Notes under the pieces: generated by a model
Told to the model about the DNA's origin: nothing
Database searches by the model: none
What the model saw: the letters and a program-made list of their open reading frames with translations, nothing else
Assembly (NCBI GenBank): GCA_007695175.1
Contig: REEH01000143.1
Coordinates: forward strand, 69,152 to 133,151
Length of the DNA: 64,000 bases
Source: Spirochaetaceae bacterium
Lineage (GTDB): Bacteria > Spirochaetota > Spirochaetia > DSM-27196 > Alkalispirochaetaceae
Direction: 5' to 3'
Shown: positions 6,536 through 25,315 of the stretch, one piece after another
Position numbering within the stretch: the stretch's first letter is position 1
Layout of the letters: the number at the start of each line of letters is the position of its first letter
Translations under genes and position numbers: made by a program

Positions 6536-7175
6536 AATCCGGGTGGCGATCTGCGAGGACGTGCGGGAAGTACGGGAGGGGTTTCGGTATCTGCTGAACC
6601 TGGACCCGGAAATACAGGTACTCGGTGCGTACAGCGACGCGGAATCGCTGCTGGAAGCCCTGGAGACGGTGATCCTTGAACCGGATATCATTCTCATGGA
6701 TATCGGTCTGCCCGGTATGAGCGGGATCGAGGCGACGGGCATCATCAAAGAACGCTTTCCCCGGATGGAAGTACTGATTCTGACGATCTTTGAGGAAGAG
6801 CGGAAAATTATCGACGCTATCGAACGAGGTGCCGCGGGGTACGTGATGAAGAACACCCGGCCCGGGGATCTTGTGGCGCAAATCAAGGAGCTCAATGCCG
6901 GGGGGTCGCCCATCAGTCCGGGGGTGGCGCGCAAACTCTTCGCTGAGCTGCGACGGGAGCGGTCTCATTCCTCCGGTACCGAATACCATCTTACCGCTCG
7001 GGAACATGAGGTGGTGCATGCCATCGTGGAAGGGCTCACATACCGGGAGATAGCGGACCGGTACGGCATTGCCGGATCGACGGTCAAGAAGCATATCCTC
7101 AACATCTACAAAAAACTTGATGTGCGCTCCAAGGTTGAGTTCATGAAGAAGGTGATGAACTCGGACCTGATATAA
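6510..7175 (+). CDS. Response regulator, NarL/FixJ family (REC + LuxR-type HTH)
   Basis: REC motifs ICEDV...D54-like DIILMDIGLPGMSG. C-terminal HTH LTAREHEVVHAIVEGLTYREIADRYGIAGSTVKKHILNIYKKL. Overlaps the kinase stop; a GTG start at 6528 after GGAG is an alternative. Confidence 0.85.
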   Translation: MNRETGVSKIRVAICEDVREVREGFRYLLNLDPEIQVLGAYSDAESLLEALETVILEPDIILMDIGLPGMSGIEATGIIKERFPRMEVLILTIFEEERKIIDAIERGAAGYVMKNTRPGDLVAQIKELNAGGSPISPGVARKLFAELRRERSHSSGTEYHLTAREHEVVHAIVEGLTYREIADRYGIAGSTVKKHILNIYKKLDVRSKVEFMKKVMNSDLI

Positions 7176-7344: not shown

Positions 7345-8628
7345 ATGAGTGAAGGGAAAAAGGGCGCGCTGGACTGGTACTTCAAGTCCAACCTGCTCAT
7401 GCGCATTCTGATAGGTCTCATTCTGGGAGCGATTGTAGGGCTCCTGGCGGGCGATTCCATAATGTGGGTCGCGCCGTTCGGGACGCTTTTCGTTAGGTTG
7501 CTGCAGATGATCGTCATGCCGGTTATCTTCGCAACTCTGGTGATGGGTTCCGCCAGCATCAGCCCGGCGGAACTGGGTAAAGTGGGTGTGAAGATCGTTC
7601 TCTTCTACCTTTTTACTTCGGCTCTTGCCGTGGCGATCGGCCTCGGTATGGCCAATATCTTTCGACCCGGTTCCGGGCTCGGCCTGACCGGCGCGGACGG
7701 CGTGGCGGGACGGGCGCTGCAGCAGCCGGCGCTTCGGGACACGTTGCTCAATATCGTGCCCACCAACCCCTTTGGAGCACTCGCGAGTGGCGCGGTTCTG
7801 CCGGTGATTTTCTTCGCGATTCTCTTTGGTATCGGTATCTCCTACCTCAAGATCAGCAGTGACGAACGCATCCGGAAGGCCGGAGAGACGCTCTTCGTGA
7901 TCTTTGACGGTGCCGCCGAGGTCATGTACATCATGGTTCGCTGGGTACTGCAGTATGCTCCCATCGGTGTGTTTGCTCTTCTGGCGGTTGTTTTCGCCCA
8001 GCAGGGTGCCGCTGCGGCGGGTCCTCTGGGAATCGTCATTGTAGCAGTGTACCTGGGACTTATCCTGCACGTGGTGGTGGTCTACGGCGGAATCCTGAAG
8101 ATCAACGGTCTGAGCTTCGTGAAGTTTATCAAGGGCTCCCGGGAGGCTATGCTCACCGCTTTTGTTACACGCAGTTCCGGTGGTACGCTTCCGGTGACCA
8201 TGCGCAACGCTGAAGGAAACCTCGGGGTAAGCCGCAAGGTGCACTCCTTTACGCTGCCCCTGGGTGCAACGATCAACATGGATGGCACGGCGATCTACCT
8301 CGGCGTGTGTGCGCTCTTCATCGGTTACGCTATCGGGATGCCTCTCGGTTTCGGCCAGCAGATCACGATCATCCTGACGGCGGTACTCGCTTCAATCGGC
8401 ACGGCGGGCGTGCCCGGTGCGGGGGCGATCATGCTGCTTATGGTGCTTCAGTCGGTGGGTCTCCCCATCGAGGACGGCTCCGCAGTGGCCGCCGCGTACG
8501 CGATGATCCTCGGTATCGATGCGATCCTCGACATGGGACGTACCTGTGCCAACGTGACCGGTGACCTGACCGGTACCTCAATCGTCGCCAAGAGCGAGAA
8601 CGAACTGGATCTCTCCTGCTGGAGCTGA
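7345..8628 (+). CDS. Dicarboxylate/amino acid:cation symporter (DAACS family, GltP/GltT-like)
   Basis: 427 aa, ~8 TM plus re-entrant loops. Typical DAACS N-terminus ([17 protein letters not shown]) and conserved C-terminal core ([28 protein letters not shown]). Confidence 0.85.
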
Positions 8629-8646
8629 ACAGCCTGAGCTGAATCC

Positions 8647-8676
8647 GGGCCCGGATGCCACCTGGTGTCCGGGCCC
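8647..8676. terminator. GC-rich hairpin (9-bp stem GGGCCCGGA/TCCGGGCCC, 12-nt loop) between convergent genes; likely bidirectional terminator
   Basis: Read directly downstream of the symporter stop. Followed by AATCTTT on the plus strand. Confidence 0.45.
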
Positions 8677-8727
8677 AATCTTTGCGCGGTCAGTCCGGAG
8701 CCCGGCCCATGGGGGAGCCCGGCCGGA

Positions 8728-9105
8728 CTACTCCTTCCGGAGGGCACTCAGGAAGGAGGGCAGACTCTTTTTCAGCACGTTGGTGAAGGTGTAGGATCCG
8801 CCGATGGTGTCGATCCGCAGGGACGCGAGGAAGAAGCCCTTCCTGTGTTCCGTGTGACGGATTTCCTCCCGCTTGATTCCAACCAGGCGTGGATCCGCCA
8901 TTGTAGGCTTGGACAGCAGGAGCAGACGGTGCTCGGTGAGCAGAATATACCAGCGGGCTCCCTCGCGGATCCCCGAGGTTATGGCGATCAGCGTTTCGTC
9001 CCGCTCGAGGCATTCCGGGAGACGCTTTATCTCCCGGCGGTAGCCAAACTCGTTTTCCAGGCCCAGCACCCGAAGGCGGGCCCGTATTTCTTTCATCGTC
9101 GCCAT
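8728..9105 (-). CDS. Hypothetical protein, bacterial PH/GRAM-like domain
   Basis: MATMKEIRARLRVLGLENEFGYRREIKRLPECLERDETLIAITSG...WYILLTEHRLLLLSKP fits the bPH-domain pattern. Start chosen at the ATG within the longer ORF. Confidence 0.4.
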   Translation of the reverse strand: MATMKEIRARLRVLGLENEFGYRREIKRLPECLERDETLIAITSGIREGARWYILLTEHRLLLLSKPTMADPRLVGIKREEIRHTEHRKGFFLASLRIDTIGGSYTFTNVLKKSLPSFLSALRKE

Positions 9106-9192: not shown

Positions 9193-9990
9193 ATGGATCG
9201 TCCCTTGATTCTGATCGGCGGGGGCGTGGGCCCCATGGCGGGTGTGGAGCTGCACCGCCGGATAATCGAGAATACCCGGACAAACGGCACGGACCAGGAT
9301 CACCTGGAGGTACTCCACCTGTCCCGGTCGCACCTGGTGGGTGACCGGACGGACTTTCTCGCTGGTATTGATGTGCCTGATCCGGCGGCGGGGATGGCGC
9401 GGGTTTTCCGCATGGCAGCGGGAGTACTGCAAAGCGAGGATCGTCGTGCCCTTGCGGGAGTACCCTGTAATACCTTTCACGCCCCGAGAATATTCAACCC
9501 CTTTGTCGAGGAAATCGGGAAGCTGGGTTTGCCCCTTCGGGTGGTGAACATGATCGACGAGACGAAAGAATGCGTATTCCGGGAGTTTCCCCGCAGCCGT
9601 CGCGTGGGACTGCTCTCCACCACGGGAACACGGGCTACCGGGGTGTATCGGGATGCACTGCTTGAATCGGAGATGGAGCTGGTCCAGATTCCGGAGTCGG
9701 AGCAACCCTTTCTGCATGAAGCGATCTACAATCTCACCTGGGGGCTCAAAGCGGTCTCACCACCGGATGCGCGCGCCCTGGAGCGCGTTGAGCGCTATGC
9801 CGTGATGCTCGCGGAATCGGGGGCGGAAGTGATCATTCTCGGTTGTACGGAGCTTCCTCTCGCATTGGCGGCGCCGGACTTCCGGGGTATTCCCCTGCTT
9901 GATCCCCTGACCGTTCTTGCACGAGCATTGGTACGCGCCACGGCACCGGAGAAGCTGCTCCCGACGGGCGAAGGAGAGATGCAACGGTAA
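9193..9990 (+). CDS. Aspartate/glutamate racemase family protein
   Basis: LILIGGGVGPMAG near the N-terminus and IILGCTELP near the C-terminus (the two catalytic Cys-region motifs of Asp/Glu/hydantoin racemases). Confidence 0.7.
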   Translation: MDRPLILIGGGVGPMAGVELHRRIIENTRTNGTDQDHLEVLHLSRSHLVGDRTDFLAGIDVPDPAAGMARVFRMAAGVLQSEDRRALAGVPCNTFHAPRIFNPFVEEIGKLGLPLRVVNMIDETKECVFREFPRSRRVGLLSTTGTRATGVYRDALLESEMELVQIPESEQPFLHEAIYNLTWGLKAVSPPDARALERVERYAVMLAESGAEVIILGCTELPLALAAPDFRGIPLLDPLTVLARALVRATAPEKLLPTGEGEMQR

Positions 9991-10861
9991 CCATCAGCAG
10001 CGCACCCGCGATGGCGGTGATGCCAAGGGCTCCTCTCAACGACACCGCTTCATCCAGCAGAAAAAATCCGAACAGAGCTGCCGCCGCCGGTTCGGCGAGC
10101 GAAACGGTGCCGGCCATGGCACCACCCACGCTGCGAAGACCCCGGGAAAAGAGGACGTAGGCGAGACCGGTCGCCACCACCCCCAGGTAGAGAACGGTTC
10201 CGACTCCATGGGCGGAATGGAGCCAGTCCAGCGGGCGAAGAATGAGCACCGGTGCAACCACCAGGGACGCCAGGAGGAAGAGGCGGCCCATGACCATCTC
10301 CGGTGGATGATCCTGAACGAGCCTCCGGATTACGATCGTCTGTGCCGCGTACGCGCCGGCCGCAAGCAGCGCGAGTCCGATACCGGCGCGGTCCATGGTG
10401 ACTTGAACGCCCGCCACATCCCCGCCACCCGCCAGCAGTATGACTCCGACGATGGAAATTGCCGTGGCGGGGAACCAGACCGGCCGCAATTTTTCCCTGA
10501 GGAAGACCGACGCGAGTAATCCCGCGAAGACGGGGGTGGTGCCGATCGTCGTTACCGTCGCCACCACGACGCCGGTCTGCCGCACCGCGGAAAAGAACGC
10601 GAACTGAAAGATCACGACGAAAAGAGTACCCGCCGGAAGGAGCGTGCGTGACCAGGGAAGGGTCGATCGCTGCCGCATCCGGTACGCCCGTGCGCTGATC
10701 AGAGCGCCCCCGATGATGATCCGGAGCGCCCCCACCGCGATCGGATCAATACCGGCGGGACCGAGGGTCTGTACCGTTCCGGTAGTACCCCAGATCAGTG
10801 ACGTGAGAAGAATCAGAAGTATACCCTGTGCCTCCGTCTGCCGATACCGAAGCTCGTTCAT
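9833..10861 (-). CDS. DMT superfamily transporter (EamA-like, 10 TM)
   Basis: Start at MNELRYRQTEAQGILLILLTSLIWGTTG... Two EamA-like halves. The 3' end overlaps the convergent racemase gene by ~158 bp. Confidence 0.7.
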   Translation of the reverse strand: MNELRYRQTEAQGILLILLTSLIWGTTGTVQTLGPAGIDPIAVGALRIIIGGALISARAYRMRQRSTLPWSRTLLPAGTLFVVIFQFAFFSAVRQTGVVVATVTTIGTTPVFAGLLASVFLREKLRPVWFPATAISIVGVILLAGGGDVAGVQVTMDRAGIGLALLAAGAYAAQTIVIRRLVQDHPPEMVMGRLFLLASLVVAPVLILRPLDWLHSAHGVGTVLYLGVVATGLAYVLFSRGLRSVGGAMAGTVSLAEPAAAALFGFFLLDEAVSLRGALGITAIAGALLMVTVASLLRPSGAASPVPWRVPMLVQERSGDQAGEYPGSPAPPMREEAPYNRE

Positions 10862-10953: not shown

Positions 10954-11937
10954 ATGGCCTTGAACGGAGGGAGTACTCGACGGGATTTTCTGAAGCGCGC
11001 CGGCGTGGCGGCGGTCGGGATGGGCCTTGCCCTGACTCATCCCCTGGTTGCCCGGGACGCCTTCGTCGGTGAGGAGGGGCGGCCGGATCCGGGGAGCATG
11101 CCCTGCCGGCCGCTGGGCCGAACGGGTGCAAAGGTCGCTCTTTTCAGCCTTGGCGGGGAAGCGACGGTGCAGAACCGGCAGCGTCGACGGGATGCGACGG
11201 CGATCATCAATCGGGCCCTCGATCTCGGCGTCAACTATATCGATACATCCCCCACCTACGGCGGTGGAGGCAGTGAATCCAACATCGGGGATGTTCTCCA
11301 GGATCGTCGGGAGGAGGTCTTTCTCGCTACAAAGACGCACAGTCGCACCTACGACGGGACCATGCGCCTGGTGGAAGAGTCCCTGAAGCGTCTGAGGACG
11401 GACAGGATTGATCTCTATCAGATTCATAACGTGCGGCTGCCCTCGGATCTCGCGACCGCTCTCGGTCCCGGGGGCGCCCTGAAGGCGCTGGAGGAACTCC
11501 GGTCCGCCGGAGTTATCCGCTTTACGGGAATCACGGGCCATCGCGACCCGGATGTTCTCCTGCGAGGTATCAGGGAGTACCCCTTTGACTCTCTTCTCAT
11601 GACACTCAACGCGGCGGACATACACGAACGCCCCTTCCAGAAGGAGCTGCTCCGGGAGGCGGTGCGCCGTGAGATGGGCGTGATCGCGATGAAGGTTACC
11701 GCGGTGGGTCGGATCTTCCGCGAGGGAGGAATAACCTCGATGGAGGAAGCCCTGGGATACACCCTCTCCTTCCCCGTGAGTACGGCGATCGTTGGTGTCT
11801 CCAATTTGCGGGAGCTGGAGCAGAATGTCCAGGTGGCCCGTCGCTTCACACCCTACGCGGAGGCTGAAAAGGCGAGGATCGAGAGTCTGACCCTCCCTTA
11901 TGCGGCGGAGGGCAACTTTTTCAAGCACCACTGGTAG
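10954..11937 (+). CDS. Aldo/keto reductase with twin-arginine (TAT) signal peptide
   Basis: MALNGGSTRRDFLKRAGVAAVGMGLALTHPLVA, then AKR motifs (NYIDTSPTYGGGGSE, DLYQIHN). ATG 10954 after GGGAG. Confidence 0.8.
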   Translation: MALNGGSTRRDFLKRAGVAAVGMGLALTHPLVARDAFVGEEGRPDPGSMPCRPLGRTGAKVALFSLGGEATVQNRQRRRDATAIINRALDLGVNYIDTSPTYGGGGSESNIGDVLQDRREEVFLATKTHSRTYDGTMRLVEESLKRLRTDRIDLYQIHNVRLPSDLATALGPGGALKALEELRSAGVIRFTGITGHRDPDVLLRGIREYPFDSLLMTLNAADIHERPFQKELLREAVRREMGVIAMKVTAVGRIFREGGITSMEEALGYTLSFPVSTAIVGVSNLRELEQNVQVARRFTPYAEAEKARIESLTLPYAAEGNFFKHHW

Positions 11938-11962
11938 GAACGGATGGTGCGGGAGGTGAAAC

Positions 11963-13054
11963 ATGGCGATCTCGAGACGGGGGTTTTTGAAGAGCGCGGC
12001 CCTTGCGGGCGGAGCCCTGCTGTTCCAGAGTCACTCGTCCCGCGAGCAGGATCCCGATTCAGTCACCGGTGCGACCCCGTCCGAGGGTGCAGCGCGGGTG
12101 TCGGGAGAGTGGGTGCCGGCTTACCGCACGCTTGAGGAAGAGGGACGCTTTTCGGACAGGATTGACGAAGCCTGGGAGCACCTTGGCCGTTGCGATCTCT
12201 GTCCGCGCCAGTGCGGAGTCAATCGCCTGCAGGGCGGTCGCGGTCTGTGCCGCGCCCCGTCCAGGGTGGTGGTCTACTCCGCCCAGCCCCATTTCGGGGA
12301 GGAGATCCCCCTTGTAGGGCGGGGCGGGTCCGGTACGATCTTTTTCTCAAACTGCAACCTGCGCTGCGTATTCTGCCAGAACTGGCCCATCGCCCATGAG
12401 GGGCGGGGCCGGGAGATCAGCGACGCGGAACTGGCGGATCTCATGCTGGCGCTCCAGCGCCTGGGGTGCCACAATATCAATGTGGTAACACCGACCCACG
12501 TAATGCCCCACATACTCAAGGCGACGCGCCTGGCGATGCTCCAGGGTCTGAATCTCCCCCTGTGCTACAATACCGGCGGTTACGAGCGGCCGGAGATCGT
12601 GAAGCTCCTGGACGGCATTGTTGATATCTACCTGCCTGATATCAAGATGATGAACGGCTGGGAGGCCCGGCAGTACCTGGGAAGCGCCGAGGATTACCCG
12701 GAAATGGCCATGGGCTCCGTCCGGGAAATGCATCGGCAGGTGGGGGAGCTGCAGAAGGACAGTGCCGGTATCGCCCGGCGCGGAGTTATGATCCGCCACC
12801 TGGTGATGCCCAACGGAATCGCCGGCACGGCGGATTTTGTCCGGTGGGTTGCCTCAGAGCTGACTACCTCCACGTACGTCAATATCATGGCCCAGTACCG
12901 CGTGGAGCACCGGGCGTTCGAGTATCCACCGATTGCGAGGTCCATAACGTCCCGGGAGTTCGTGGAGGCGATGCAGCTCGCCCGGGAAGCCGGACTTACC
13001 AACCTGGATGAGCGATCGGTCATGCAGTACCAGGTGCATCGCAGTCGCGTCTGA
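11963..13054 (+). CDS. Radical SAM enzyme, PflA-like (AmmeMemoRadiSam-type architecture) with TAT-like N-terminus
   Basis: MAISRRGFLKSAALAGGALLF. N-terminal CDLCPRQC. GSGTIFFSNCNLRCVFCQNW (CxxxCxxC). GGGAGG RBS 5 nt before the ATG. Confidence 0.75.
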   Translation: MAISRRGFLKSAALAGGALLFQSHSSREQDPDSVTGATPSEGAARVSGEWVPAYRTLEEEGRFSDRIDEAWEHLGRCDLCPRQCGVNRLQGGRGLCRAPSRVVVYSAQPHFGEEIPLVGRGGSGTIFFSNCNLRCVFCQNWPIAHEGRGREISDAELADLMLALQRLGCHNINVVTPTHVMPHILKATRLAMLQGLNLPLCYNTGGYERPEIVKLLDGIVDIYLPDIKMMNGWEARQYLGSAEDYPEMAMGSVREMHRQVGELQKDSAGIARRGVMIRHLVMPNGIAGTADFVRWVASELTTSTYVNIMAQYRVEHRAFEYPPIARSITSREFVEAMQLAREAGLTNLDERSVMQYQVHRSRV

Positions 13055-14218
13055 TCAGCTCCACCGTCCGGGTATCGCCCCGTTGCAGCGTGAGCAGTGC
13101 CCATCCCGTATGTTGATCTCCTCGATTACGAAACCGAGACGCTTGATCGCGGTGGCTCCGCAGGAGGGGCAATAGGTGTTTTCTCCCTCGTGCCCCGTGA
13201 CACGGGCGACATACACGTAGTTGAGGCCCGCCTCCCGGGCCGCATCACGGGCACGATCGATCGTCGCCACCGGTGTGGGCGGGAGGTTGCTCAGCTTGTA
13301 GAGCGGGTAGAAGCGGGCCAGGTGAAGCGGCACGTCCGGACCGAGTTCGTCGTGGATCCACCGGCACATGCGGCGTATCATCGCGGTGTCGTCGTTCATG
13401 GTCGGGATCAGAAGATTGGTGATTTCCAGGTGAACACCGTTCTTTCCGAGCACTTTCAACGTATCCAGGACCGGTTGCAGCTCGCCCCCGCAGAGATTCC
13501 GGTAAAACTCCGGATCGAAGCTCTTCAAGTCCACATTCACCGCGTCCAGATTGTCCATCACCGCCGTGAGCGGCTCCCTGTTGATGTAGCCGCTGGTATG
13601 CAGAAGATTGTGCAGTCCGGCGCGGCGGGCACGTACACTCGTTTCCTGTACGTACTCCCAGAACGCTACCGGTTCACCAAAGGCATAGCTTACCGACTGG
13701 ACACCGGTGCTGCGCGCATGCTCCACCACATCCCGGGGCGGGAGGTGGTACGTATGGACCTCCTCCGGAGAAACAAGCGCCATATCCCAGACCTCACAGA
13801 AGGAGCACGACAGGGGGCAGCCGGCGGTGGAGATGGAGAGGGCCCGGGAACCGGGCAGAAAGTGGAAGAACGGCTTCCGTTCCACCGGATCCGACTGAAC
13901 GAGCGCGGGATTGCCGTAGGAGAGGGTATACCCGGTGCCGTTCTGGTTTGTCCGGACGCGGCAGCTTCCGCGTTCACCCGGCCCGATGCGGCACTCCCGC
14001 GGGCAGAGCAGGCACTGCACACCCTTGCGGGAGAGAGAACGGAACCACGGTGAGGGGTGTTTGCCCGTTACGCCCCGCGCCGTGGTCTGGGCATGCGTCG
14101 TGTGCAGGAGCCCCGGCGCTCCCAGGAGACCCGAAAGGCAGAGTGCCCCCGCACCGAATGCGCCGGCTTTCAGTATTGCCCGCCGTTGAAGATCGATCCC
14201 TTCTTTTCCCTTTTTCAT
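13055..14218 (-). CDS. Radical SAM enzyme, PflA-like paralog with TAT-like N-terminus and C-terminal CxxC...CxxC
   Basis: Start at MKKGKEGIDLQRRAILKAGAFGAGALCLSG (ATG 14218, ATGA overlap with the upstream stop). CLLCPRECRIG. AGCPLSCSFCEVWD. C-terminal CPSCG...CSRCNG. The listed N-terminal ORF extension overlaps the upstream gene in another frame. Confidence 0.75.
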   Translation of the reverse strand: MKKGKEGIDLQRRAILKAGAFGAGALCLSGLLGAPGLLHTTHAQTTARGVTGKHPSPWFRSLSRKGVQCLLCPRECRIGPGERGSCRVRTNQNGTGYTLSYGNPALVQSDPVERKPFFHFLPGSRALSISTAGCPLSCSFCEVWDMALVSPEEVHTYHLPPRDVVEHARSTGVQSVSYAFGEPVAFWEYVQETSVRARRAGLHNLLHTSGYINREPLTAVMDNLDAVNVDLKSFDPEFYRNLCGGELQPVLDTLKVLGKNGVHLEITNLLIPTMNDDTAMIRRMCRWIHDELGPDVPLHLARFYPLYKLSNLPPTPVATIDRARDAAREAGLNYVYVARVTGHEGENTYCPSCGATAIKRLGFVIEEINIRDGHCSRCNGAIPGRWS

Positions 14219-16638
14219 GGCCCGCTTCCTTTCTCCGATATCCTCAGTATACCATGGGATACGGCGTTTCCCGTAGCGGCGAGCATGCAGCACGCCACGA
14301 TTCCCAGCACGGGAGCCACCGCGAGTCCCGCAAGAAGCGATCCGAGACACGCCCCGAAAAGCTCCATGCCATATACGATTCCGGTCGTGCCCTCGGCGTT
14401 GCCCCTGATCCGGTGGTAGCAGGCCGTCGTGAGGGGGAAGTCGAAGCCGTTCAGAAATCCTGCCGAGAACGTGAGGGTGAAGAAGAAGCCCAGGAGAATC
14501 ATTGGTCTTTCGATCGTTGCGATAGGGGGGAGAGCGAGCCCGATAAGAAGCGCCCAGACCGCGATGATCAGCTGCACCCGACGGAGAACGAGGCGGCTTC
14601 CGGGATCCGGAACGAAGCGCCGGGCCGCCGTCGCGCCGAGAGCCAGCCCCACCATGAAGGCCGCTACGATCAGCCCGATCATCTCGTAGACGTATCCGTA
14701 AAAACTCTGGAAGGCGAAAAGAAGCGCGATCTGCAGCGCCATCGTGGAAAGGCCGGTGGTGAAAACCGCCACGAGAACGGCATACCGGTCGCTGCGCTTT
14801 CCGTCGCGTCGCTTGTCGCGCCCCCGGAGCAGGACCGCCGTGAGGAGAGCCAGGAGGATCGGCGGAATGATCCACCAGGGGCGGATACGGAGGATCCACG
14901 TAATCACTCTCCCCGGGGAATCCCGGGTCAGAGTACTCCAGTACGCCAGGGTATGCACGTATCCGATCGGTCGGAAGTCGGAATTGATAAAGTAACCTTC
15001 ATTGATCGGAGGCAGATCCTTCTCCATGCTTTCCTGCTCCGGTATGGTGGGAACCAGGAGCGGCACGGGCTCCGGCCCGTCCATGTGGGCCGATGGTGTC
15101 CGCCCGTGATTGCGAAGAATCCAGCCGAGCCGTCGGAGCGGGTCCTCCTCCAGGAGGAGCTGGAACTGGAATGGCGAGAAGGTGCTCTCCCGGATGCCCC
15201 GTTCGAGATAGCGCATTTGCAGGATCGATGGATCGGCGGTGGTTATCCCCGCACTTCCGGCGGCCACGAAGGTCAGGTGGCGCTGCCCCAGGGGCAGCAC
15301 GTGGTCAAAGACTCGTTTCAGGGTGTGATAGATGGTAGCGTTGCGGTTTGCCAGAGCGCGTCCACGCAGATCGGCGGCGGAGCCGACGCCGATCACCAGA
15401 ACGCCCCGCTCCTGGAGGCGCCGTGCCGCTTCCCGAAAAAACTCCTCCGTGTAGTAGCGGTTCAACACCGCCGTGAAGGGATCGGGTGTATCAATGATGA
15501 TGATGTCGTAGAGCTCCGCCTCGGAATCCGCACCGCCCCCTCCCGACTTGATAAAGAGGCGCCCGTCGCCATGGAGAAGACGCACCTCCCGCCGGTCCAG
15601 GGGTTCCGTCCTTGATCGGGGCAGGTGCTGTCGCGCCACCCTGGTCAGTACCGGATCGAGCTCAAGGTAATCCACCCGTTCCACCGGATGGGTCAGGATT
15701 TCGCGCAGAATGCCCCGCAGACCGCCTCCTACAAGCAGAATCCGTCGCGGCCGGGGATGCTGCGTCAGGGCCAGGTGCGCTGCGGTGATCGCCTCCTGTT
15801 CCTCCAGTTCCACCTCACCGGCGGAGAAAACCAGGTTGCCGCTCTGGAAGAAACTGTACTGGCCCTCCCGATGCGCGACGGAAACCGTTCCGTAGCGCGA
15901 CTGGTGGACCGCGAGGAGCTGGTGTTCCGGGCTGAAATACTTCCATTGCTGCTGGTGCGCCCACCCGTCGAAGGTGTCCAGAAAGGGGAGGGAGAGAATC
16001 AGGGTGGCGATCACGATCCAGAGCGGAATACGGCCGGTACGGGATGCCACGGTGAGCGAGGCCAGGGCCATCACGATACCTGCCAGAACCACCGCATGAA
16101 AGGAAGAGATGCGGTTCACCAGGAGGAGGGAGAAGAGCACCCCCCCCAGTGCGTTGCCCAGGGCCTCGGTGACGTAGGTCTTTCCCGCGCCGCCCTCGTT
16201 TTCCAGACCGTCCCGGAGCCGCCACGCCCGGGCGAGCAGAACAAAGAGCATTCCCAGGAGCACCCCGACCGGTGCGGTTACCAGGAAAACGGAGAGCGTC
16301 ATATCCGGTATGGAGAGATACGCTCCCGGCTGAACGGAGAAGAATGAGCGCAGTATCCGCACGAGGAAGAGCGTTACCGGCAGCAGTATCGGCAGGATCG
16401 TGCCGGTGAGCGCTATTGCCGGAGCGGGAGACGTGTCTCCGGTGAACCGGCTCGCCACGTATCCGGCCCCCACGCTGCCCAGACCGACCCACACCATCCA
16501 CGCTCCGAGAATGATTCCCATGGAGAGCTCGTTGCCGTGAAAGACGATCAGCAGTTCCCGCAGGAGTACGATCTGCCCGATCTGACCCACGATACCCAGG
16601 GAAAGTACGAGTGCCGGTGTAGCATGTGTCCTCTTCAT
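14215..16638 (-). CDS. Fused MFS-like membrane domain / spermidine synthase-like (aminopropyltransferase fold) protein
   Basis: 807 aa. N- and C-terminal polytopic membrane regions flank a SpeE-like core (ILLVGGGLRGILREI...YLELDP...DIIIIDTPDP...GVLVIG). Confidence 0.7.
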   Translation of the reverse strand: MKRTHATPALVLSLGIVGQIGQIVLLRELLIVFHGNELSMGIILGAWMVWVGLGSVGAGYVASRFTGDTSPAPAIALTGTILPILLPVTLFLVRILRSFFSVQPGAYLSIPDMTLSVFLVTAPVGVLLGMLFVLLARAWRLRDGLENEGGAGKTYVTEALGNALGGVLFSLLLVNRISSFHAVVLAGIVMALASLTVASRTGRIPLWIVIATLILSLPFLDTFDGWAHQQQWKYFSPEHQLLAVHQSRYGTVSVAHREGQYSFFQSGNLVFSAGEVELEEQEAITAAHLALTQHPRPRRILLVGGGLRGILREILTHPVERVDYLELDPVLTRVARQHLPRSRTEPLDRREVRLLHGDGRLFIKSGGGGADSEAELYDIIIIDTPDPFTAVLNRYYTEEFFREAARRLQERGVLVIGVGSAADLRGRALANRNATIYHTLKRVFDHVLPLGQRHLTFVAAGSAGITTADPSILQMRYLERGIRESTFSPFQFQLLLEEDPLRRLGWILRNHGRTPSAHMDGPEPVPLLVPTIPEQESMEKDLPPINEGYFINSDFRPIGYVHTLAYWSTLTRDSPGRVITWILRIRPWWIIPPILLALLTAVLLRGRDKRRDGKRSDRYAVLVAVFTTGLSTMALQIALLFAFQSFYGYVYEMIGLIVAAFMVGLALGATAARRFVPDPGSRLVLRRVQLIIAVWALLIGLALPPIATIERPMILLGFFFTLTFSAGFLNGFDFPLTTACYHRIRGNAEGTTGIVYGMELFGACLGSLLAGLAVAPVLGIVACCMLAATGNAVSHGILRISEKGSGP

Positions 16639-16743: not shown

Positions 16744-18276
16744 TTATCCGAAGACGACGAGCTGCAGGTAGATCATCTCCGTAAAGAAAAGCACCACGAT
16801 GTAGAGGAGTTCGTAGTTCAGATTACGGAAGAAAAAGCGCGTATCGAGACGGGAAAGAATTGACAGCCGGCGATACAGGGGACGGGCAAATACCAGGGCA
16901 CTCCCCATAACGGCCAGATCTATCAGGAAAGCAATGCCGGGCCGGCTGAGCGGGTAGGGGAAGGCAAGGTAATAGATCGCAAACATGGCAAGAAAGGTGA
17001 GGTAGAAGAGGTTGTTCTCCTTCTTCCGGACGATGCGATATCGGAACTTGAAGAACGCCCCCAGCACCAGAAACATCGAGAAGTAAACAACCAGGCGATA
17101 ACCCCCGAAGGACCCGACGAACTGGTACTTCAGTGCGTACGTCAGGGCGGGAAAGAATCCGGTGGTGAACAGAACGCCCAGACCACATATGGTGAGAGCT
17201 TTCCAGCTTCCCGCAACGCGCAGGTCGTCCTGGCGGGACTCGTCGTAGTCGAACTGGTCGTAGAGGAGGAAGAGGAGGCACTTGTACAGACCGTGAACGA
17301 CGATGTACGTAAAGGCTACCTCGTACATGCGGTAGGAGAGCATCAGCCCGATAAAACCGATCGTGAAGACCGTGGTTCCCGCGATGACGCGTTTGAGATG
17401 GGGCTCGAAGAAGAGAAAGAGTGCCGGCAAGAGCATGGTCGTCACCGAGAGAATACGCAGAAAATCGAAGATCCCCGTAAACCCCAGCAGGTCCGCCGGT
17501 ACAAGAACGAGGTAGTAGAGCCCGTAAATACCTGTGAAGATCGTAAAGGCCGAAAGAAATGCGGAGATGAGGGAGTTGGTGGCGGTATGGCACGTGCTGA
17601 CCCAGCTTGAGACGGGGAAAAACGCACCTTTCACAAAGAATGCGGTGCTGAACAGCAGCAGCACCAGGTGCAGGTTGTATTCACTGAAGGTCATTATCTG
17701 ATCCACGAAGGAGAACCCGAAGTAGGAACCGGAGGCGTAGAGCAGGATCACACCACCGAGGAAAAGCGCCGAACTTGAAGCGCCGATGATCATGTACTTG
17801 ATTGAGGCGTAATACTTGCCCTTGATACCGATCAGGACGTAGGCAGCCATGATCATTACCTCGTAGAAGACGTAGAAAGTAAAGACGTCGCCCGTGACCA
17901 GAAGCCCACTGCAGCCGGCCAGGTAAAAGAGGAGGATCATGCGGACGTACTGCGTCTTGAAGAGGTGAAGGCGGAAAAGGGTAAAGAGAAGCGGTGTCAG
18001 GTAAGCCGCGAGGAAGTAGGTTTTGTGGGCATCAAAGGCAAATACTATTGAGTAGTCCCATTCGGAAATGGCTGTTACAAAGACACCCTCGTAACCGATG
18101 AAGGATGCGATAATCACTGCCCCCGAGGCCAACTGGGCCAGGACTACCGCTACGATGACGGCCGAGGAGATGTCACGGCGCAGAAGGTACTTGGCGGTGA
18201 GGATAAACACATTCCCCAGGAGCGGGAGAACGGGGAAGAAGAGGAGCAGTGTCCGCACCAGGTATTCAGCGTTCAT
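16744..18276 (-). CDS. mnhD: Mrp/Mbh antiporter subunit D (NuoN/MbhH-like proton-translocating subunit), cluster 1
   Basis: 510 aa, ~14 TM, complex-I subunit 2/4/5 family pattern. Confidence 0.8.
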   Translation of the reverse strand: MNAEYLVRTLLLFFPVLPLLGNVFILTAKYLLRRDISSAVIVAVVLAQLASGAVIIASFIGYEGVFVTAISEWDYSIVFAFDAHKTYFLAAYLTPLLFTLFRLHLFKTQYVRMILLFYLAGCSGLLVTGDVFTFYVFYEVMIMAAYVLIGIKGKYYASIKYMIIGASSSALFLGGVILLYASGSYFGFSFVDQIMTFSEYNLHLVLLLFSTAFFVKGAFFPVSSWVSTCHTATNSLISAFLSAFTIFTGIYGLYYLVLVPADLLGFTGIFDFLRILSVTTMLLPALFLFFEPHLKRVIAGTTVFTIGFIGLMLSYRMYEVAFTYIVVHGLYKCLLFLLYDQFDYDESRQDDLRVAGSWKALTICGLGVLFTTGFFPALTYALKYQFVGSFGGYRLVVYFSMFLVLGAFFKFRYRIVRKKENNLFYLTFLAMFAIYYLAFPYPLSRPGIAFLIDLAVMGSALVFARPLYRRLSILSRLDTRFFFRNLNYELLYIVVLFFTEMIYLQLVVFG

Positions 18277-18577
18277 GTATCTCCGATATCTCTATCGTCC
18301 CGTGGTGTTGAAAATACTTCACGACAAAGGCGAGGGCGAGCGCGTTGAAGCAGACCCCTATTACGATCGCCGTAAGCATCAGGGCCTGCGGTACGGGATC
18401 CACGAATGTGGACTCCGGCACGCTGAGAATCGGAGCGGCGGCATGCGCCTGGAACCCGGTGGTGAGAAAAGACATCACCACGATACCCTGAACGACCGTG
18501 AGGCTCATGATTTTCCTGATCAGGTTGTCACAGACCACCAGCCCGTAGAGACCGACAAAGAGAATCAGCAGCGTCAT
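18266..18577 (-). CDS. mnhC: Mrp antiporter subunit C (NuoK-like), cluster 1
   Basis: 103 aa, 3 TM, MrpC-like; overlaps mnhD by 11 nt. Confidence 0.8.
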   Translation of the reverse strand: MTLLILFVGLYGLVVCDNLIRKIMSLTVVQGIVVMSFLTTGFQAHAAAPILSVPESTFVDPVPQALMLTAIVIGVCFNALALAFVVKYFQHHGTIEISEIHER

Positions 18578-18861
18578 GAGGTGCTCCGGATATACTTCAT
18601 ACCGAAGACGGTGAGGATCACCACGTTCACCTCCAGGAAAGTATCAAAAATCCGCGGTCCCAGGTACACCACCGCCACCATGTTCTCAATGTTCATGTGT
18701 TCCGCCAGCCCCCGGAAATCGGGAACGACCTGGCTGAAAACGAGATCGATTCCCCGCATGTAGGTCGCCACGTACACCAGCGATCCCAGCAGTATCACCG
18801 CCACGAGGGAATCAAAGATGACCTTGCGTCGTTTTTTCCTGTCAGTCCCGGTATGGTTCAT
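18574..18861 (-). CDS. Mrp subunit B-like small membrane protein (MbhF-like), cluster 1
   Basis: NMVAVVYLGPRIFDTFLEVNVVILTV matches the MrpB signature (NVV-x-IL-x-x-R-x-FDT-x-GE). 4-nt overlap with mnhC. Confidence 0.6.
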   Translation of the reverse strand: MNHTGTDRKKRRKVIFDSLVAVILLGSLVYVATYMRGIDLVFSQVVPDFRGLAEHMNIENMVAVVYLGPRIFDTFLEVNVVILTVFGMKYIRSTS

Positions 18862-19273
18862 CGCCTTTCCATTCTATCAGGGATCGGTAGATCAGGATCA
18901 GGGACCCCGAAACCTCGCTGTAGATAGCGAGGTTGAGGAGCCAATAGAAGACGTTTGAGAACATGGGGCTTCTCGTGGTGACCCCGTAGAGACCGGAGAA
19001 AAAGAAGTCCGTCAGGAAAAACCCGACGATGAGCGCGGTAAAGAGAAAGATAATGCCCAGGAACTCGATCTTCATATAGAAGGAGTTCTCAAAAATACGG
19101 CGACTGAAGACCATTTCCACCACGATTACCACCGTTCCGAAGACAACCCCCGCCTGGAAGCCGCCGCCGGGGAAGTTTGCTCCGTAGGAAGTCAGGTAGA
19201 ACCCGAACATCGCTATGAAAGGAAAGAGCATTCCCACGGTGTTTTTCAGTATGGCCGATTCACGAAGATCCAT
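18842..19273 (-). CDS. MnhB-domain membrane protein (MbhE-like, GGGFQGG motif), cluster 1
   Basis: 143 aa with FPGGGFQAGVVFG. In cluster 2 this region is fused with the MrpB-signature region in one gene. Confidence 0.65.
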   Translation of the reverse strand: MDLRESAILKNTVGMLFPFIAMFGFYLTSYGANFPGGGFQAGVVFGTVVIVVEMVFSRRIFENSFYMKIEFLGIIFLFTALIVGFFLTDFFFSGLYGVTTRSPMFSNVFYWLLNLAIYSEVSGSLILIYRSLIEWKGDEPYRD

Positions 19274-19629
19274 TACTTCCGTACCTCGTACTCCGCACCG
19301 ATGTAGATCGGGCAGGGAAAGGCCATCAGCGTACCCACCTCCGGTTGCGTCAGATCAATACCGTCCCGTCTGAGAGCGGCGTTCAGGGAGAATATGGTCT
19401 CCCGGTCAGGAACGACCGAGATTATCGTTTTGTTGAAAAGGATATCCTGCCCGAAGAGCGCGGTGACCTCGCTGAGAATTGGTGCGGTCTCGGTCGCCAC
19501 GTTTTCCACACCCTCACCGTCCAGGACGGAGGTGTCGAAAAGTCCCAGTTCCACCAGGGTCGATACAACGGGTTTCGCGTAGGCCTCGCTTTTCAGGATG
19601 ATGATCACCACATGCATGGAGTTGTCCAT
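19273..19629 (-). CDS. Hypothetical P-II-like (GlnB-fold) protein embedded in Mrp cluster 1
   Basis: MHVVIIILKSEAYAKPVVSTLVELGLFDTSVLDGEGV has the beta-alpha-beta spacing of P-II/SbtB-like proteins. Start uncertain (ATG 19629 or 19617). 1-nt overlap with the downstream MnhB start. Confidence 0.4.
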   Translation of the reverse strand: MDNSMHVVIIILKSEAYAKPVVSTLVELGLFDTSVLDGEGVENVATETAPILSEVTALFGQDILFNKTIISVVPDRETIFSLNAALRRDGIDLTQPEVGTLMAFPCPIYIGAEYEVRK

Positions 19630-19636
19630 CGTTGTA

Positions 19637-20095
19637 CTAATCCTCCCGGGGCTCTTCAAATGCACTGATCAGATCCCGCACCGCCTGGGGATCGCGCTTG
19701 AGGAAGACCTCCTCCGCATCGGGTCGCGAGAGGAATCGGGAAAGGCGGGCCATCAGGCTGAGGTACGTGCGGGACATCGAGTCCGGTACGATGATGCAGA
19801 GTACCGTATGGGCCGTTTCCCCCCGGCGATATCGTACGGACTTTGACAGGAGACCGACGCTGATACAGATTTCCGGGATCTCCGACGTGCGGGTATGTAC
19901 GAGAAAGAAACCGTTCCCCAGGTTCACCTCTTTCTTCCGGCTGAAAGCGGTGATATCGCTGTATATGCGCTCGTGAAAGCTTTCCGGTTCCTCCGGCAGG
20001 GCAGCGGCAATGAGTATACGCAGAATCTCCTCCCGACGGTCCGTCTCTACCGGTATTATTCTATCCGCCGGAATGTATTCCAAAAGGCTTTTCAT
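19637..20095 (-). CDS. PTS EIIA type-2 domain protein (Fru/Ntr class) embedded in Mrp cluster 1
   Basis: 152 aa. GNGFFLVHTRTSEI places a His at the position of the phosphorylatable His of EIIA-2 domains. AAGGAGA RBS. ATGA overlap with the upstream DUF4040 stop. Confidence 0.65.
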   Translation of the reverse strand: MKSLLEYIPADRIIPVETDRREEILRILIAAALPEEPESFHERIYSDITAFSRKKEVNLGNGFFLVHTRTSEIPEICISVGLLSKSVRYRRGETAHTVLCIIVPDSMSRTYLSLMARLSRFLSRPDAEEVFLKRDPQAVRDLISAFEEPRED

Positions 20096-20346
20096 TGATC
20101 ATTCTCCTTGCTGGTTTTCCGAATTGCTACCAGAAAAACGATTGTGGTGAGGCCCGTTCCCAGAGCCGCCTCGGTAATCGCCACGTCCGGTGCGTTGAGT
20201 ACAAAGTAGTTCAGAGCGAGAAACATGCTGAAAACGCTTAGCCCAAGCAGCGACATGATTATGCTGCGGGAGAAGACGACCACCACGGTGGCGGCAAGCA
20301 GAAAAACATGAAGCAGCTGGTCGAGCGTAAGGGGTAACTGGAGCAT
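20092..20346 (-). CDS. DUF4040-like small membrane protein (MnhB N-terminal domain, MbhD-like), cluster 1
   Basis: 84 aa from the internal ATG of ORF 20092..20694; 3 TM; the listed upstream part of that ORF overlaps mnhG in another frame. Confidence 0.55.
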   Translation of the reverse strand: MLQLPLTLDQLLHVFLLAATVVVVFSRSIIMSLLGLSVFSMFLALNYFVLNAPDVAITEAALGTGLTTIVFLVAIRKTSKENDQ

Positions 20347-20348
20347 CA

Positions 20349-20639
20349 CTACTGTCCCGCCCGATATTGACGGTACTTGATATAGGACAGGCCGAGAATA
20401 TGAGCGATCAGCGGTGAGGTTATTATGGTAATCGCCGCGAGTACGATGACCTTGATGATAAAACCGATACCATCCACCAGGAGAAGCAACCCCAGGAATA
20501 CCGTCAGGGACCCGGTGGCTCCACACTTGGTGCCGGCGTGAAAACGGGTAAGAGTATCGGGGAGAATGATCATTCCCAGGTTTCCCCAGAAGACGATGAA
20601 GAGACCAAGTGAAGCGAGAACGTACCCTATAATAGTCAT
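20349..20639 (-). CDS. mnhG: Mrp antiporter subunit G, cluster 1
   Basis: 96 aa; LTRFHAGTKCGATGSLTV matches the MrpG RxHAxTKxxTxG signature. Confidence 0.8.
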   Translation of the reverse strand: MTIIGYVLASLGLFIVFWGNLGMIILPDTLTRFHAGTKCGATGSLTVFLGLLLLVDGIGFIIKVIVLAAITIITSPLIAHILGLSYIKYRQYRAGQ

Positions 20640-20902
20640 AACGATACCATTTCCTCCGAGCGGTCCGGTCCGACGAGACGTACATAGGCGACAATCTCCG
20701 TGAAGGAGAGCAGCGCGTAAATCATCGCGACATCCATGTAGAAAACGTGATTGTAATGAACGGCGTAGAACGCCATCAGAAGCGTGACGTGGGCTGACAC
20801 CATATTAAGAGCAAGCAGTCTATCGTAGAGATTTGGGCCGATGATGAGGCGCACGATACTCATGGCGGTGAGGGCGTAGGTAACGTAAATAAGCACTATC
20901 AT
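20636..20902 (-). CDS. mnhF: Mrp antiporter subunit F, cluster 1
   Basis: 88 aa, 3 TM; N-terminus IGPNLYDRLLALN... is MrpF-like. Confidence 0.7.
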   Translation of the reverse strand: MIVLIYVTYALTAMSIVRLIIGPNLYDRLLALNMVSAHVTLLMAFYAVHYNHVFYMDVAMIYALLSFTEIVAYVRLVGPDRSEEMVSL

Positions 20903-21444
20903 CCGAAGATCCTTTCCAGAATATCCTCGATGAGGAAGGTGATCATGCGGGATGCTCTCTTGCTGTGCCGCGTTTCCACGTTGAACCAGTGCACGTATAT
21001 GGTGCTGCCTTCCATCCAGAGCGAAAGGGTTCCCGGCACGATTGATATGGTATTGCAGAGAACGGCGCGCCCGAAGGGGGAGCGCAGGCGCGTCCGTATC
21101 TTGACTATGCCCGGACGATAGTCTCCGGTAAGCATGCGTCGGACGATATCGATGATGGCGATGTAGCTGAGATAGAGGATGACCGCCACGTATATGATAA
21201 CCAGATCGAGACGGAGAAAGATCCGTGCCGTAGGACGCAGGTGCTGCTCGTAAAAGAGTCCAAAGGAGTACAATGCGGAGGCGAAGGAAAGCACCACCGC
21301 CACGGAGAGGGAGAGGGGATTAAGATCCTGCGCCATCAGGATCCAGAAGATGAAACACAGCAGGAAAACGGTGAGAATGCGCATAATGATGAGCCGCTTT
21401 TCCTTTTCCCGTTGCTGGGCTATCGGTGCGATGGTGTTTCTCAT
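20899..21444 (-). CDS. mnhE: Mrp antiporter subunit E, cluster 1
   Basis: 181 aa; N-terminal TM pair plus ISIVPGTLSL (MrpE TLTPGT-like). First gene of the cluster. Confidence 0.75.
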   Translation of the reverse strand: MRNTIAPIAQQREKEKRLIIMRILTVFLLCFIFWILMAQDLNPLSLSVAVVLSFASALYSFGLFYEQHLRPTARIFLRLDLVIIYVAVILYLSYIAIIDIVRRMLTGDYRPGIVKIRTRLRSPFGRAVLCNTISIVPGTLSLWMEGSTIYVHWFNVETRHSKRASRMITFLIEDILERIFG

Positions 21445-24968: not shown

Positions 24969-25315
24969 GAATCCTCCCTGGTGGCAATGAACAACCGGGC
25001 GATATCAGTTGTCCCGTAGTGACGATAAACGGCGACTGTCAGGGCAAGGGCAATCGCCAGAATGCCGGCTCCGATCACGATCGCTGTAAGAGCCAGCGCA
25101 TGGGGGAGCGGATCCACGAATCGGAGCGCCTCAAAACCTGCGATAGGAGCCGCTCCGCCGGGAACATAAGCGGCCGCCACAAGGGCCATCACAAAGGAAG
25201 AATCCATGATGCTGATGGAGATACAGATTTTGATCATATCCCGCTGGGTGAGCATGCCGTACAGGCCGATGGCGAAGACACCCGCGGCGGTCAGGTACGC
25301 AGCGGTCTGCATCAT
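24965..25315 (-). CDS. mnhC: Mrp antiporter subunit C, cluster 2
   Basis: 116 aa, 3 TM, NuoK/MrpC-like. Confidence 0.8.
   Translation of the reverse strand: MMQTAAYLTAAGVFAIGLYGMLTQRDMIKICISISIMDSSFVMALVAAAYVPGGAAPIAGFEALRFVDPLPHALALTAIVIGAGILAIALALTVAVYRHYGTTDIARLFIATREDS

Follow-up and report, generated by a model that had tools for sequence, protein, structure and literature searches.

The stretch of DNA analyzed here (64,000 nucleotides; referred to as the window) originates from a member of the Spirochaetaceae (GenBank assembly GCA_007695175.1, contig REEH01000143.1, positions 69,152 to 133,151 of the forward strand). It contains two convergent genes, here called RS1 and RS2, which encode radical S-adenosylmethionine (SAM) enzymes with N-termini resembling signals of the twin-arginine translocation (Tat) pathway. 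They are flanked by the genes for an aldo/keto reductase (AKR) and for a large membrane protein with a domain like that of the spermidine synthase SpeE (SPE-like protein; Table 1). A first-pass annotation of the bare sequence had described the two reading frames as PflA-like radical SAM genes that begin with twin-arginine motifs and abut at their stop codons, all of which was borne out: both open reading frames (ORFs) are intact, no spacer separates their stops (TGA at 13052-13054, TCA at 13055-13057), and the N-termini read MAISRRGFLKSAALAGGALLF for RS1 (longer stretch: MAISRRGFLKSAALAGGALLFQSH) and MKKGKEGIDLQRRAILKAGAFGAGALCLSGLLGAPGLL for RS2 (longer stretch: MKKGKEGIDLQRRAILKAGAFGAGALCLSGLLGAPGLLHTTHAQ). 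RS1 is preceded by a strong Shine-Dalgarno sequence (GGGAGGTG), the end of which is 5 nt away from the ATG; the start codon of RS2 overlaps the TGA of the upstream SPE-like gene (ATGA), which points to translational coupling. RS1, RS2, and the SPE-like protein are each 100% identical to NCBI proteins from metagenome-assembled genomes (in the case of RS2, P0121).

Table 1. Genes and features of the RS1/RS2 locus (positions in the window).
Feature	Position	Strand	Description
RS1	11963..13054	+	363 aa; PflX-like radical SAM enzyme; predicted Tat signal; PF04055
RS1 predicted Tat signal, aa 1-24	11963..12034	+	MAISRRGFLK + SAALAGGALLF + QSH; disordered linker after it, to ~aa 46
RS1 N-terminal Cys motif	12191..12214	+	CDLCPRQC: C77, C80, C84; invariant in 120 homologs
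RS1 radical SAM motif	12353..12376	+	CNLRCVFC: C131, C135, C138; invariant in 120 homologs
RS2	13055..14218	-	387 aa; TIGR04337-type radical SAM enzyme; N-terminal RR signal or anchor (predicted)
RS2 N-terminal region, aa 1-43	14090..14218	-	RR at aa 12-13 (nt 14180-14185); 21-residue uncharged stretch with one Cys; then THA↓Q
RS2 N-terminal Cys motif	13991..14014	-	CLLCPREC: C69, C72, C76; putative auxiliary cluster site; invariant in 120 homologs
RS2 radical SAM motif	13796..13819	-	CPLSCSFC: C134, C138, C141; invariant in 120 homologs; aligns to the cluster motif of PflA
SPE-like protein	14215..16638	-	807 aa; 7 transmembrane helices, SpeE-fold domain, 6-7 transmembrane helices; stop overlaps RS2 start
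SpeE-like domain with conserved extension, aa 223-587	14878..15972	-	predicted on the non-cytoplasmic side; GGGLRG; D-x-P-D-P kept
AKR	10954..11937	+	PF00248; Tat signal STRRDFLK; 25 nt upstream of RS1, same direction

Both RS1 and RS2 exceeded the cutoff of the radical SAM model PF04055 (29.5 bits) with 47.7 and 71.5 bits, respectively. By sequence, the nearest solved relative of RS2 is PflA (E = 1e-10; the GGE-type motif is aligned as FGE). A sequence search of the PDB with RS1 found no relative; the best fold match of its AlphaFold2 model (pLDDT 88.5) was again PflA, with a TM-score of 0.70-0.73 at 12-13% identity. The first-pass annotation had also proposed a structure model as a check on the N-terminus. 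In the model of RS1, a helix spans residues 5-25, residues 25-46 appear disordered (pLDDT < 50), and a confident core begins at residue ~50, a layout compatible with a signal and a tether. The paired cysteine motifs had been taken for a layout of the AmmeMemoRadiSam type. The motifs are indeed present in both proteins, and C96 of RS1 is likewise invariant in 120 homologs; membership in the corresponding family, TIGR04337 (cutoff 220 bits), was found for RS2 (335.5 bits; the model is matched by 120 of 120 RS2 homologs) but not for RS1 (22.4 bits). RS1 is a remote PflX-like relative outside TIGR04337, sharing 20-33% BLAST identity with the long TIGR04337-like representatives tested. Relatives of RS1 are named “putative pyruvate formate lyase activating enzyme” by the JGI, and one homolog is labeled [quoted passage not shown] by the NCBI pipeline; the Tat feature of the RS1 family is machine-visible already, but undiscussed.

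For each enzyme, the 120 best of thousands of homologs (58-80% identity, full-length coverage) were compared with respect to their N-termini. An RR, KR, or RK pair followed by a hydrophobic stretch was kept in 110 of the aligned RS1 homologs and 116 of those of RS2, and these came from many phyla; a stricter form of the motif matched only 16 of 590 control ORFs of the same loci and 4 of 120 SPE-like proteins. One way to account for such segments without export would be an annotation artefact, with the real start codons farther downstream and the RR segment a translated 5′ leader or a product of chance. Some database homologs do start at an internal Met and thus lack the segment, as this explanation would have it; these, however, look N-terminally truncated. 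Also at odds with an artefact are the properly spaced Shine-Dalgarno sequence of RS1, the coupled start of RS2, and the fact that the segment is conserved as protein over many phyla at 50-80% identity, including its motif, hydrophobic region (h-region), and cleavage-site layout. We therefore regard an artefact as highly improbable; on the evidence of the alignments, the RR N-termini of RS1 and RS2 are conserved, and neither chance nor misplaced start codons account for them.

The two families differ in what follows the twin arginines. The RS1 family conforms to MxxTRRxF[IL]K, ∼11-15 uncharged residues and, in 68 of the 120 homologs, a Cys that is preceded by A, G, or S at position -1 (65 of 68) and by L at position -3 (48 of 68); a variable low-complexity linker and then WxPAY come after this Cys. 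The consensus of the RS2 family is RRxFLKAGAxGxCALCLAG, with either an AxA-like site (56 of 120) or a lipobox-like site (33) behind it. The hidden Markov model (HMM) for Tat signals, TIGR01409 (cutoff 16.7 bits), was passed by RS1 (21.2-25.1 bits) and, as anticipated from the clear Tat signal that the first-pass annotation had seen in it, by the AKR (28.9-32.2 bits). Several RS2-family N-termini gave sub-threshold matches to Rieske Tat signal-anchor models; given these matches and the length of its uncharged stretch (21 residues), an uncleaved Tat signal-anchor is possible for RS2. At the level of the families, the sequences combine the features of Tat substrates, namely, an n-region with RR, a moderately hydrophobic h-region, and a site for signal peptidase I or II.

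RS1 relatives were sought in one genome per GTDB species, and at least 581 were found, in Spirochaetota, Planctomycetota, Bacillota, Desulfobacterota, Verrucomicrobiota, Gammaproteobacteria, Gemmatimonadota, Acidobacteriota, and others; many of these genomes stem from soda-lake sediments. When only loci with RS1 at a minimum of 56% identity were counted, 58 had room for RS2, which adjoined RS1 in 47 of them and was convergent with it in 44. Of 63 related loci, 29 have the SPE-like gene next to RS2; some distant RS1 relatives have an SPE-like gene directly upstream of them and no RS2. The trio of RS1, RS2, and SPE-like genes is also present in a cultured organism, Thioalkalivibrio paradoxus ARh1 (CP007029.1, positions ∼2,696,431-2,701,082), which renders the predictions made here directly testable; its RS1 begins with MPVTRRTFLKRMAVAGGAGILAAC, contains the canonical lipobox ILAAC, and scored 25.7 bits with TIGR01409. 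A further conserved partner (substrate peptide, ApbE, ferredoxin, or SAM transporter) was not found in more than four loci when all ORFs of 90 aa or more located no farther than 5 kb away were compared all-against-all in 49 module loci. Nor did these 49 loci contain AMMECR1 or Memo genes, the absence of which from the window, asserted in the first-pass annotation, was corroborated by a Pfam scan of its ∼47 ORFs and by tblastn (best E > 1). FMN_bind domains with the motif Dxx[ST]GA[ST] and ApbE were absent from the Pfam scan of the window as well.

The tail-to-tail arrangement of RS1 and RS2 is very tight: the median spacer between the 3′ ends is 25 nt, and in 14 of the 44 convergent loci the ends are at most 5 nt apart or overlap. 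There is no room for a terminator, so the two transcripts are bound to overlap or to continue into one another. Two neighbors of the module were considered as components and dismissed. The AKR gene adjoins the module in loci of Spirochaetaceae only, which makes it a lineage-specific accessory. Divergent from it lies a gene for an EamA/DMT transporter (9833-10858, minus strand). As some DMT proteins transport SAM, it was a candidate for a SAM transporter; an EamA gene also adjoins RS2 in Desulfonatronospira (L002), but this neighborhood is not conserved.

The third component, which the first-pass annotation had missed, is the SPE-like protein. It matches PF01564 and, with 47.9 bits (cutoff 40), NF037959 (“fused MFS/spermidine synthase”), but falls far below the cutoffs of the SpeE equivalog models (PRK03612, 164 versus 472; TIGR00417, 79 versus 249.55). 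Hydropathy analysis indicated seven transmembrane helices, a domain of 365 residues, and six further helices, and the AlphaFold2 model (pLDDT 88.2, pTM 0.88) likewise consists of seven helices, a SpeE fold, and six to seven helices; the soluble domain superimposes on SpeE crystal structures with a TM-score of ∼0.7. In all aligned homologs the motif GGGDGG, selective for decarboxylated SAM, is replaced by GGGLRG. According to structural work on SpeE, the Asp lost is the residue that excludes the carboxylate of SAM; SAM rather than its decarboxylated form may therefore be the ligand. With neither the equivalog models nor GGGDGG matched, and only PF01564 and NF037959 recognizing it, the protein does not qualify, by sequence, as a spermidine synthase. 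The loop after transmembrane helix 8 reads RDKRRDGKRSDR. The conserved stretch FINSDF[RK]P[IV][GA]Y (RPIGY) resembles the RVxG[FWY] motif, but a role of the protein as a glycyl-radical target was rejected, as the Gly is replaced by Ala in 4 of 38 homologs.

Lysine and arginine are distributed unevenly over the loops of the SPE-like protein. On average over 33 homologs, 19.5 of them lie on the side of the membrane opposite the SpeE-like domain and 5.5 on the same side, and the N- and C-terminal halves of the protein independently agree on this bias in 33 of 33 cases. SPE-like proteins from loci with Memo genes (see below) show the same outward bias in 36 of 36 cases (6.2 versus 19.9), which amounts to 69 of 69 homologs. 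The SpeE-like domain is thus predicted to face outward. This orientation bears on the conservative view that RS1 and RS2 are ordinary cytoplasmic enzymes, whose RR-hydrophobic segment mediates membrane association or chaperone binding and whose partner domains, the SpeE-like one included, all reside on the cytoplasmic face. All characterized radical SAM enzymes are cytoplasmic, the literature searched contains no exported one, the N-terminus of RS2 of the window goes unrecognized by Tat HMMs, the h-region of RS1 comprises only ∼11 residues, and Bacillota have RK variants, all of which suits that view. It is difficult to square with the unanimous charge bias of 69 SPE-like proteins and with the lipobox or AxA sites that follow the h-region in many homologs. 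The charges of the N-termini, moreover, precede the hydrophobic segment, so that by the positive-inside rule the domain C-terminal to it belongs outside. Sister clades of RS2 provide two further arguments against this view, given in the next two paragraphs. Taken together, these make a wholly cytoplasmic system clearly unlikely.

An exhaustive, profile-free search yielded 8255 relatives of RS2. Among the 25 closest representatives at 50% identity, 24 have an N-terminus that bears an RR signal, is hydrophobic, or is extended by a fusion; farther away, the short canonical form (MKEALFY...) prevails. With 129 representatives placed on a rough neighbor-joining tree, only five changes are needed to account for the exported-type state, and the clade of RS2 consists of exported-type representatives throughout. 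Several sister proteins are fusions in which a single transmembrane helix precedes an extracytoplasmic-type domain and the radical SAM domain: FMN_bind in P0384 and P0385, CBM_11 in P0375, and a β-propeller in P0364. In others, the fused parts are membrane modules for electron transfer, that is, a transmembrane helix, FMN_bind, and a NapH/NosR-like Fer4_5 module (P0380 and P0372), DsbD_2 with FMN_bind and Fer4_5 (P0376), or DsbD_2 without these (P0369 and P0378). At one locus (L091), the parts of such a fusion are divided between two adjacent genes. The motif for ApbE-dependent flavinylation, Dxx[ST]GAT, is kept in five of five FMN_bind domains. Lys and Arg abound in the last CX3CP loop of the NapH-like fusions, after which come one transmembrane helix and then the radical SAM domain; as this loop is presumably cytoplasmic, by analogy with NapH, the radical SAM domain should reside on the side of FMN_bind, that is, outside. 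The single-helix fusions are hard to accommodate if all radical SAM domains of the clade were on the cytoplasmic face.

Canonical fusions of Memo, AMMECR1, and radical SAM domains also exist, and it was through a relative of RS2 that a connection to Memo and AMMECR1, also overlooked in the first-pass annotation, became apparent. The gene for P0365, a Tat-type protein 46% identical to RS2, is located between a gene for a Memo+AMMECR1 fusion protein, which opens with the signal peptide MRRGAVVLLVLLAGVPAIAQ, and a convergent SPE-like gene; L089 is one of the sister loci with Memo/AMMECR1 neighbors. When metagenomes were scanned with P0365-type relatives as seeds, 80 loci were returned. Of the 77 radical SAM proteins encoded there, 63 have an RR motif and a hydrophobic N-terminus, and the 51 loci of at least 7 kb contain an SPE-like gene in 34 cases, Memo/AMMECR1 in 29, and both in 23. 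Memo and AMMECR1 nearly always form one fused gene, and 36 of 37 Memo+AMMECR1 proteins start with a signal peptide that is hydrophobic and Sec-like and, in several of them, includes a lipobox; this again speaks against cytoplasmic partners. A Tat-type signal on the iron-sulfur (FeS) protein and a Sec-type signal on its partner without FeS cluster is the split to be expected if the whole system is exported. The locus in the window is best read as one variant of an AmmeMemoRadiSam system that is large, undescribed, and exported, with RS1 in the place of Memo+AMMECR1.

Some side observations on this wider family deserve mention. Two TIGR04337-like proteins, P0411 and P0448, contain inteins in their radical SAM domain (matches to Intein_splicing and LAGLIDADG_3). 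The gene for the Tat-type protein P0362 (L087) has neither SPE-like nor Memo/AMMECR1 neighbors and adjoins an Mla lipid-transport operon; a 71-aa Cys-rich ORF (6799-7014, plus strand) precedes, and a 226-aa secreted protein of no assigned family (8193-8873, plus strand) follows.

If the enzymes do leave the cytoplasm, they need not work outside. In one scenario, radical SAM chemistry is performed in the cytoplasm, its target being the enzyme, a bound partner, or a bound small molecule, and Tat then exports the complex in folded form, or the product; the exported protein would be a carrier, a scaffold, or a single-turnover activator rather than a multiple-turnover periplasmic enzyme. Such a sequence of events would solve the problem of SAM and reductant supply, and the module indeed lacks supply genes. 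Tat exports pre-assembled complexes and cofactor-loaded proteins, and PflA-type activases, to which RS1 and RS2 are similar in fold and sequence, can act stoichiometrically. Two sets of observations are at variance with it. The partners are apparently exported separately, Memo+AMMECR1 via Sec-type signals and the SpeE-like domain via membrane insertion. Furthermore, the fusions of sister radical SAM domains to FMN_bind with its ApbE motif, to NapH/NosR-like modules, and to DsbD_2 make sense only if electrons reach the radical SAM domain outside, flavinylation being generally extracytoplasmic (PMC8238504). Chemistry before export is, hence, unlikely, if less so than a wholly cytoplasmic system.

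Genuine export is favored over a cytoplasmic chaperone handle, because lipobox or AxA sites, signal peptides on partners, extracytoplasmic fusions, and an outward partner domain all suggest it; the first-pass annotation had raised such a handle and an uncleaved anchor as alternatives, the latter of which is possible for RS2. We consider it probable that RS1 and RS2 are loaded with their clusters in the cytoplasm, exported by Tat in folded form, and active at the outer face of the membrane together with the outward SpeE-like domain, with which they would physically associate. In the cytoplasm, both would acquire [4Fe-4S] clusters at the CxxxCxxC and, also, at the N-terminal CxxCxxxC motif. As Tat carries folded, cofactor-loaded proteins, it could then translocate them in that state. 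They would remain at the membrane, where an uncleaved signal-anchor or a lipid anchor would keep them in most lineages; in the spirochaete of the window, signal peptidase I may release them instead. There, they would act in conjunction with the SpeE-like domain (a fold that binds SAM or its decarboxylated form) of the 13-14-helix membrane protein. As to the cofactor, one may speculate that this polytopic protein provides the adenosyl cofactor or recycles it, or that it presents a substrate embedded in the membrane; SAM may, alternatively, leave the cytoplasm bound to the folded enzyme and be used catalytically or once. Electrons might come, again speculatively, from periplasmic or transmembrane carriers, as suggested by the NapH/NosR-FMN and DsbD_2 fusions of the sister clades. 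Flavodoxin, which contains flavin mononucleotide (FMN), is the physiological reductant of PflA, which makes the FMN_bind fusions a plausible answer to the question of the reductant in those clades.

Several observations weigh against this export model. The N-terminus of RS2 of the window (QRRAILK) matched neither TIGR01409 nor PF10518, so the Tat signature expected from the first-pass annotation was recovered by HMM for RS1 and the AKR only. Among 10 RS2-family N-termini, PF10518 found one above its cutoff and six below it, and TIGR01409 detected 22 of 120 full-length RS1 homologs (E ≤ 0.01) and was not among the models listed for the RS2 homologs. Models of such short signals are too insensitive here, which is why the motif analysis with control ORFs was used; the Tat character of RS2 of the window, lacking an HMM match, rests on its RR motif and its family. 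Whereas the sequence of a signal h-region is not usually conserved, that of the RS2 family is, containing a Cys in 115 of 116 homologs and CxxC in 61 (a single Cys in RS2 of the window, GAGALCLSG), which we count as a weak point. The presumed lipobox of the RS1 family has an atypical Lys at position -2 in 28 of 68 cases; RS1 of the window has no Cys after its h-region at all and only a weak SHS↓S site. Bacillota homologs contain RK in place of RR, and a few distant RS1 relatives are equipped with non-RR signals or anchors, which would be difficult to explain if an FeS protein is exported. For the topology of the SPE-like protein, the basis is a simple hydropathy predictor combined with the positive-inside rule. 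Neither the window nor the 49 module loci encode a supply of SAM or of electrons at low potential. Finally, alkaline pH destabilizes SAM, and many module genomes come from soda lakes; Thioalkalivibrio, moreover, is aerobic or microaerophilic, a setting hostile to exposed clusters.

A more specific version of the export model is put forward tentatively, as a possibility that may well not hold. It envisages a self-contained, extracytoplasmic radical SAM machine, in which the exported pair (elsewhere, the radical SAM protein and secreted Memo+AMMECR1) docks on the SpeE-like domain, while the 13-14-helix body serves as a conduit that brings SAM across the membrane to it, or takes 5′-deoxyadenosine and methionine away; in the sister clades, electrons would arrive via flavinylated NapH/NosR- or DsbD-type relays, and the substrate would be a component of the envelope or external to it. 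Were this to apply, the ancestral function of AmmeMemoRadiSam would not be RNA modification.

Radical SAM enzymes constitute one of the largest enzyme superfamilies; they require SAM, a low-potential electron, and FeS clusters kept free of oxygen, and the class is known only from inside the cell. A broad clade built for export would overturn this strictly cytoplasmic view and pose the question of how SAM and electrons reach the periplasm. At the same time, the finding provides the first contextual handles on AmmeMemoRadiSam, namely, a conserved membrane partner of SpeE-like type, for one clade a probable location outside the cytoplasm, and fused modules for electron supply; homologs of two of its components, AMMECR1 and MEMO1, are human disease-associated proteins.

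Other genes of the window are summarized here. Directly beyond the SPE-like gene begins the first of two clusters for Mrp/Mnh-type cation/proton antiporters (16744-21444 and 23451-26933, both on the minus strand; Proton_antipo_M, MnhB/MbhE, and small hydrophobic subunits), which fit an alkaliphilic or halophilic host. Two paralogous ORFs of ∼160 aa (31296-31778 and 32113-32598, minus strand; MKT.VVY.S.TG.N...) and a 337-aa ORF with hydrophobic N-terminus (32645-33658, minus strand) had no Pfam match at E ≤ 1e-4. There is also a trio of NuoE-like, NuoF-like, and molybdopterin formate-dehydrogenase-like genes (34351-39684, minus strand) without signal and, after it, a set of molybdenum-cofactor genes (39733-45766; MoeA, MoaC, MoaE, MogA-like, FdhD, and MobA). 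A fusion protein combining two rhodanese domains and a VTT/DedA membrane domain is encoded next to a Pyr_redox_2/Fer4_20 oxidoreductase and an HdrD-like CCG protein (51565-53313 and 53320-55910, both on the minus strand). A LolA-like gene (57520-58317) has upstream of it a 436-aa ORF (56216-57526, minus strand) with a GRGAGRGAGRG-type repeat near its N-terminus and no Pfam match. On the other side of the module, a gene of the Asp/Glu racemase family (9193-9990, plus strand) had the cysteate racemase CuyB as best NCBIfam match (132.9 bits, which is below the cutoff of 190).

How does the locus compare with known systems? Closest to it is AmmeMemoRadiSam. RS2 shares with this family the N-terminal CxxCxxxC, the CxxxCxxC, and the C-terminal Cys pairs, and close relatives of RS2 (P0365, for example) adjoin Memo+AMMECR1. 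The first-pass annotation was nevertheless right in stating that the system is not a canonical one: AMMECR1 and Memo are missing from the window, PflX-like RS1 is in the partner position, both radical SAM enzymes carry putative export signals, and there is an additional conserved polytopic protein with a SpeE-like domain, whereas the canonical radical SAM component is a short protein that lacks a signal and presumably stays in the cytoplasm. The sole functional proposal found for AmmeMemoRadiSam is the modification of RNA bases (Balaji and Aravind 2007, PMC2034487), which cannot apply to a clade that is exported. The literature searched contained neither a functional characterization of AmmeMemoRadiSam, nor a link between AMMECR1 or Memo and SpeE-like proteins, nor the description of a radical SAM enzyme that is exported or has a Tat signal.

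The second comparison is with PflA and other activases of glycyl radical enzymes. PflA is the nearest solved structure for RS1 by fold and for RS2 by sequence; RS1 and RS2 differ from it in their extra N-terminal Cys motif and their export signals, and all activase HMMs scored far below their cutoffs (TIGR02493, 66.1 for RS2 and 16.8 for RS1, cutoff 231.75). A glycyl radical enzyme was not among the Pfam matches in the window. With Tat-dependent redox proteins (small subunits of hydrogenases, molybdoenzymes, Rieske proteins, and NADP-bound glucose-fructose oxidoreductase), RS1 and RS2 have in common an RRxFLK-type N-terminus in front of a cofactor domain, and the lipoprotein, cleaved, and signal-anchor variants of known Tat substrates all appear to occur among their families too. 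What sets them apart is the passenger, a radical SAM enzyme; neither its co-substrate SAM nor its reductant is known from outside the cytoplasm. The AKR of the window, with its Tat signal, is presumably a parallel to the exported, NADP-bound glucose-fructose oxidoreductase.

FMN_bind/NapH-like and DsbD modules have been described as modular, extracytosolic electron-transfer devices that supply extracytosolic enzymes; for most of them the reaction served is not known, and radical SAM enzymes are not mentioned (Meheust et al. 2021, PMC8238504). Radical SAM domains of the sister clades are fused to precisely such parts (FMN_bind, NapH-like Fer4_5, and DsbD_2), in contrast to the module of the window, which has no such genes. 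Finally, the SPE-like protein resembles the fused MFS/spermidine synthases of NF037959 and the long, membrane-bound SpeE of PRK03612 in its PF01564 match, its SpeE fold, and its D-x-P-D-P catalytic-loop motif. It differs in its GGGLRG motif, in the position of the domain between 7 and 6-7 transmembrane helices with a predicted outward orientation, and in its genetic association with putatively exported radical SAM enzymes and Memo/AMMECR1. Altogether, the locus is a variant of a known, itself uncharacterized system.

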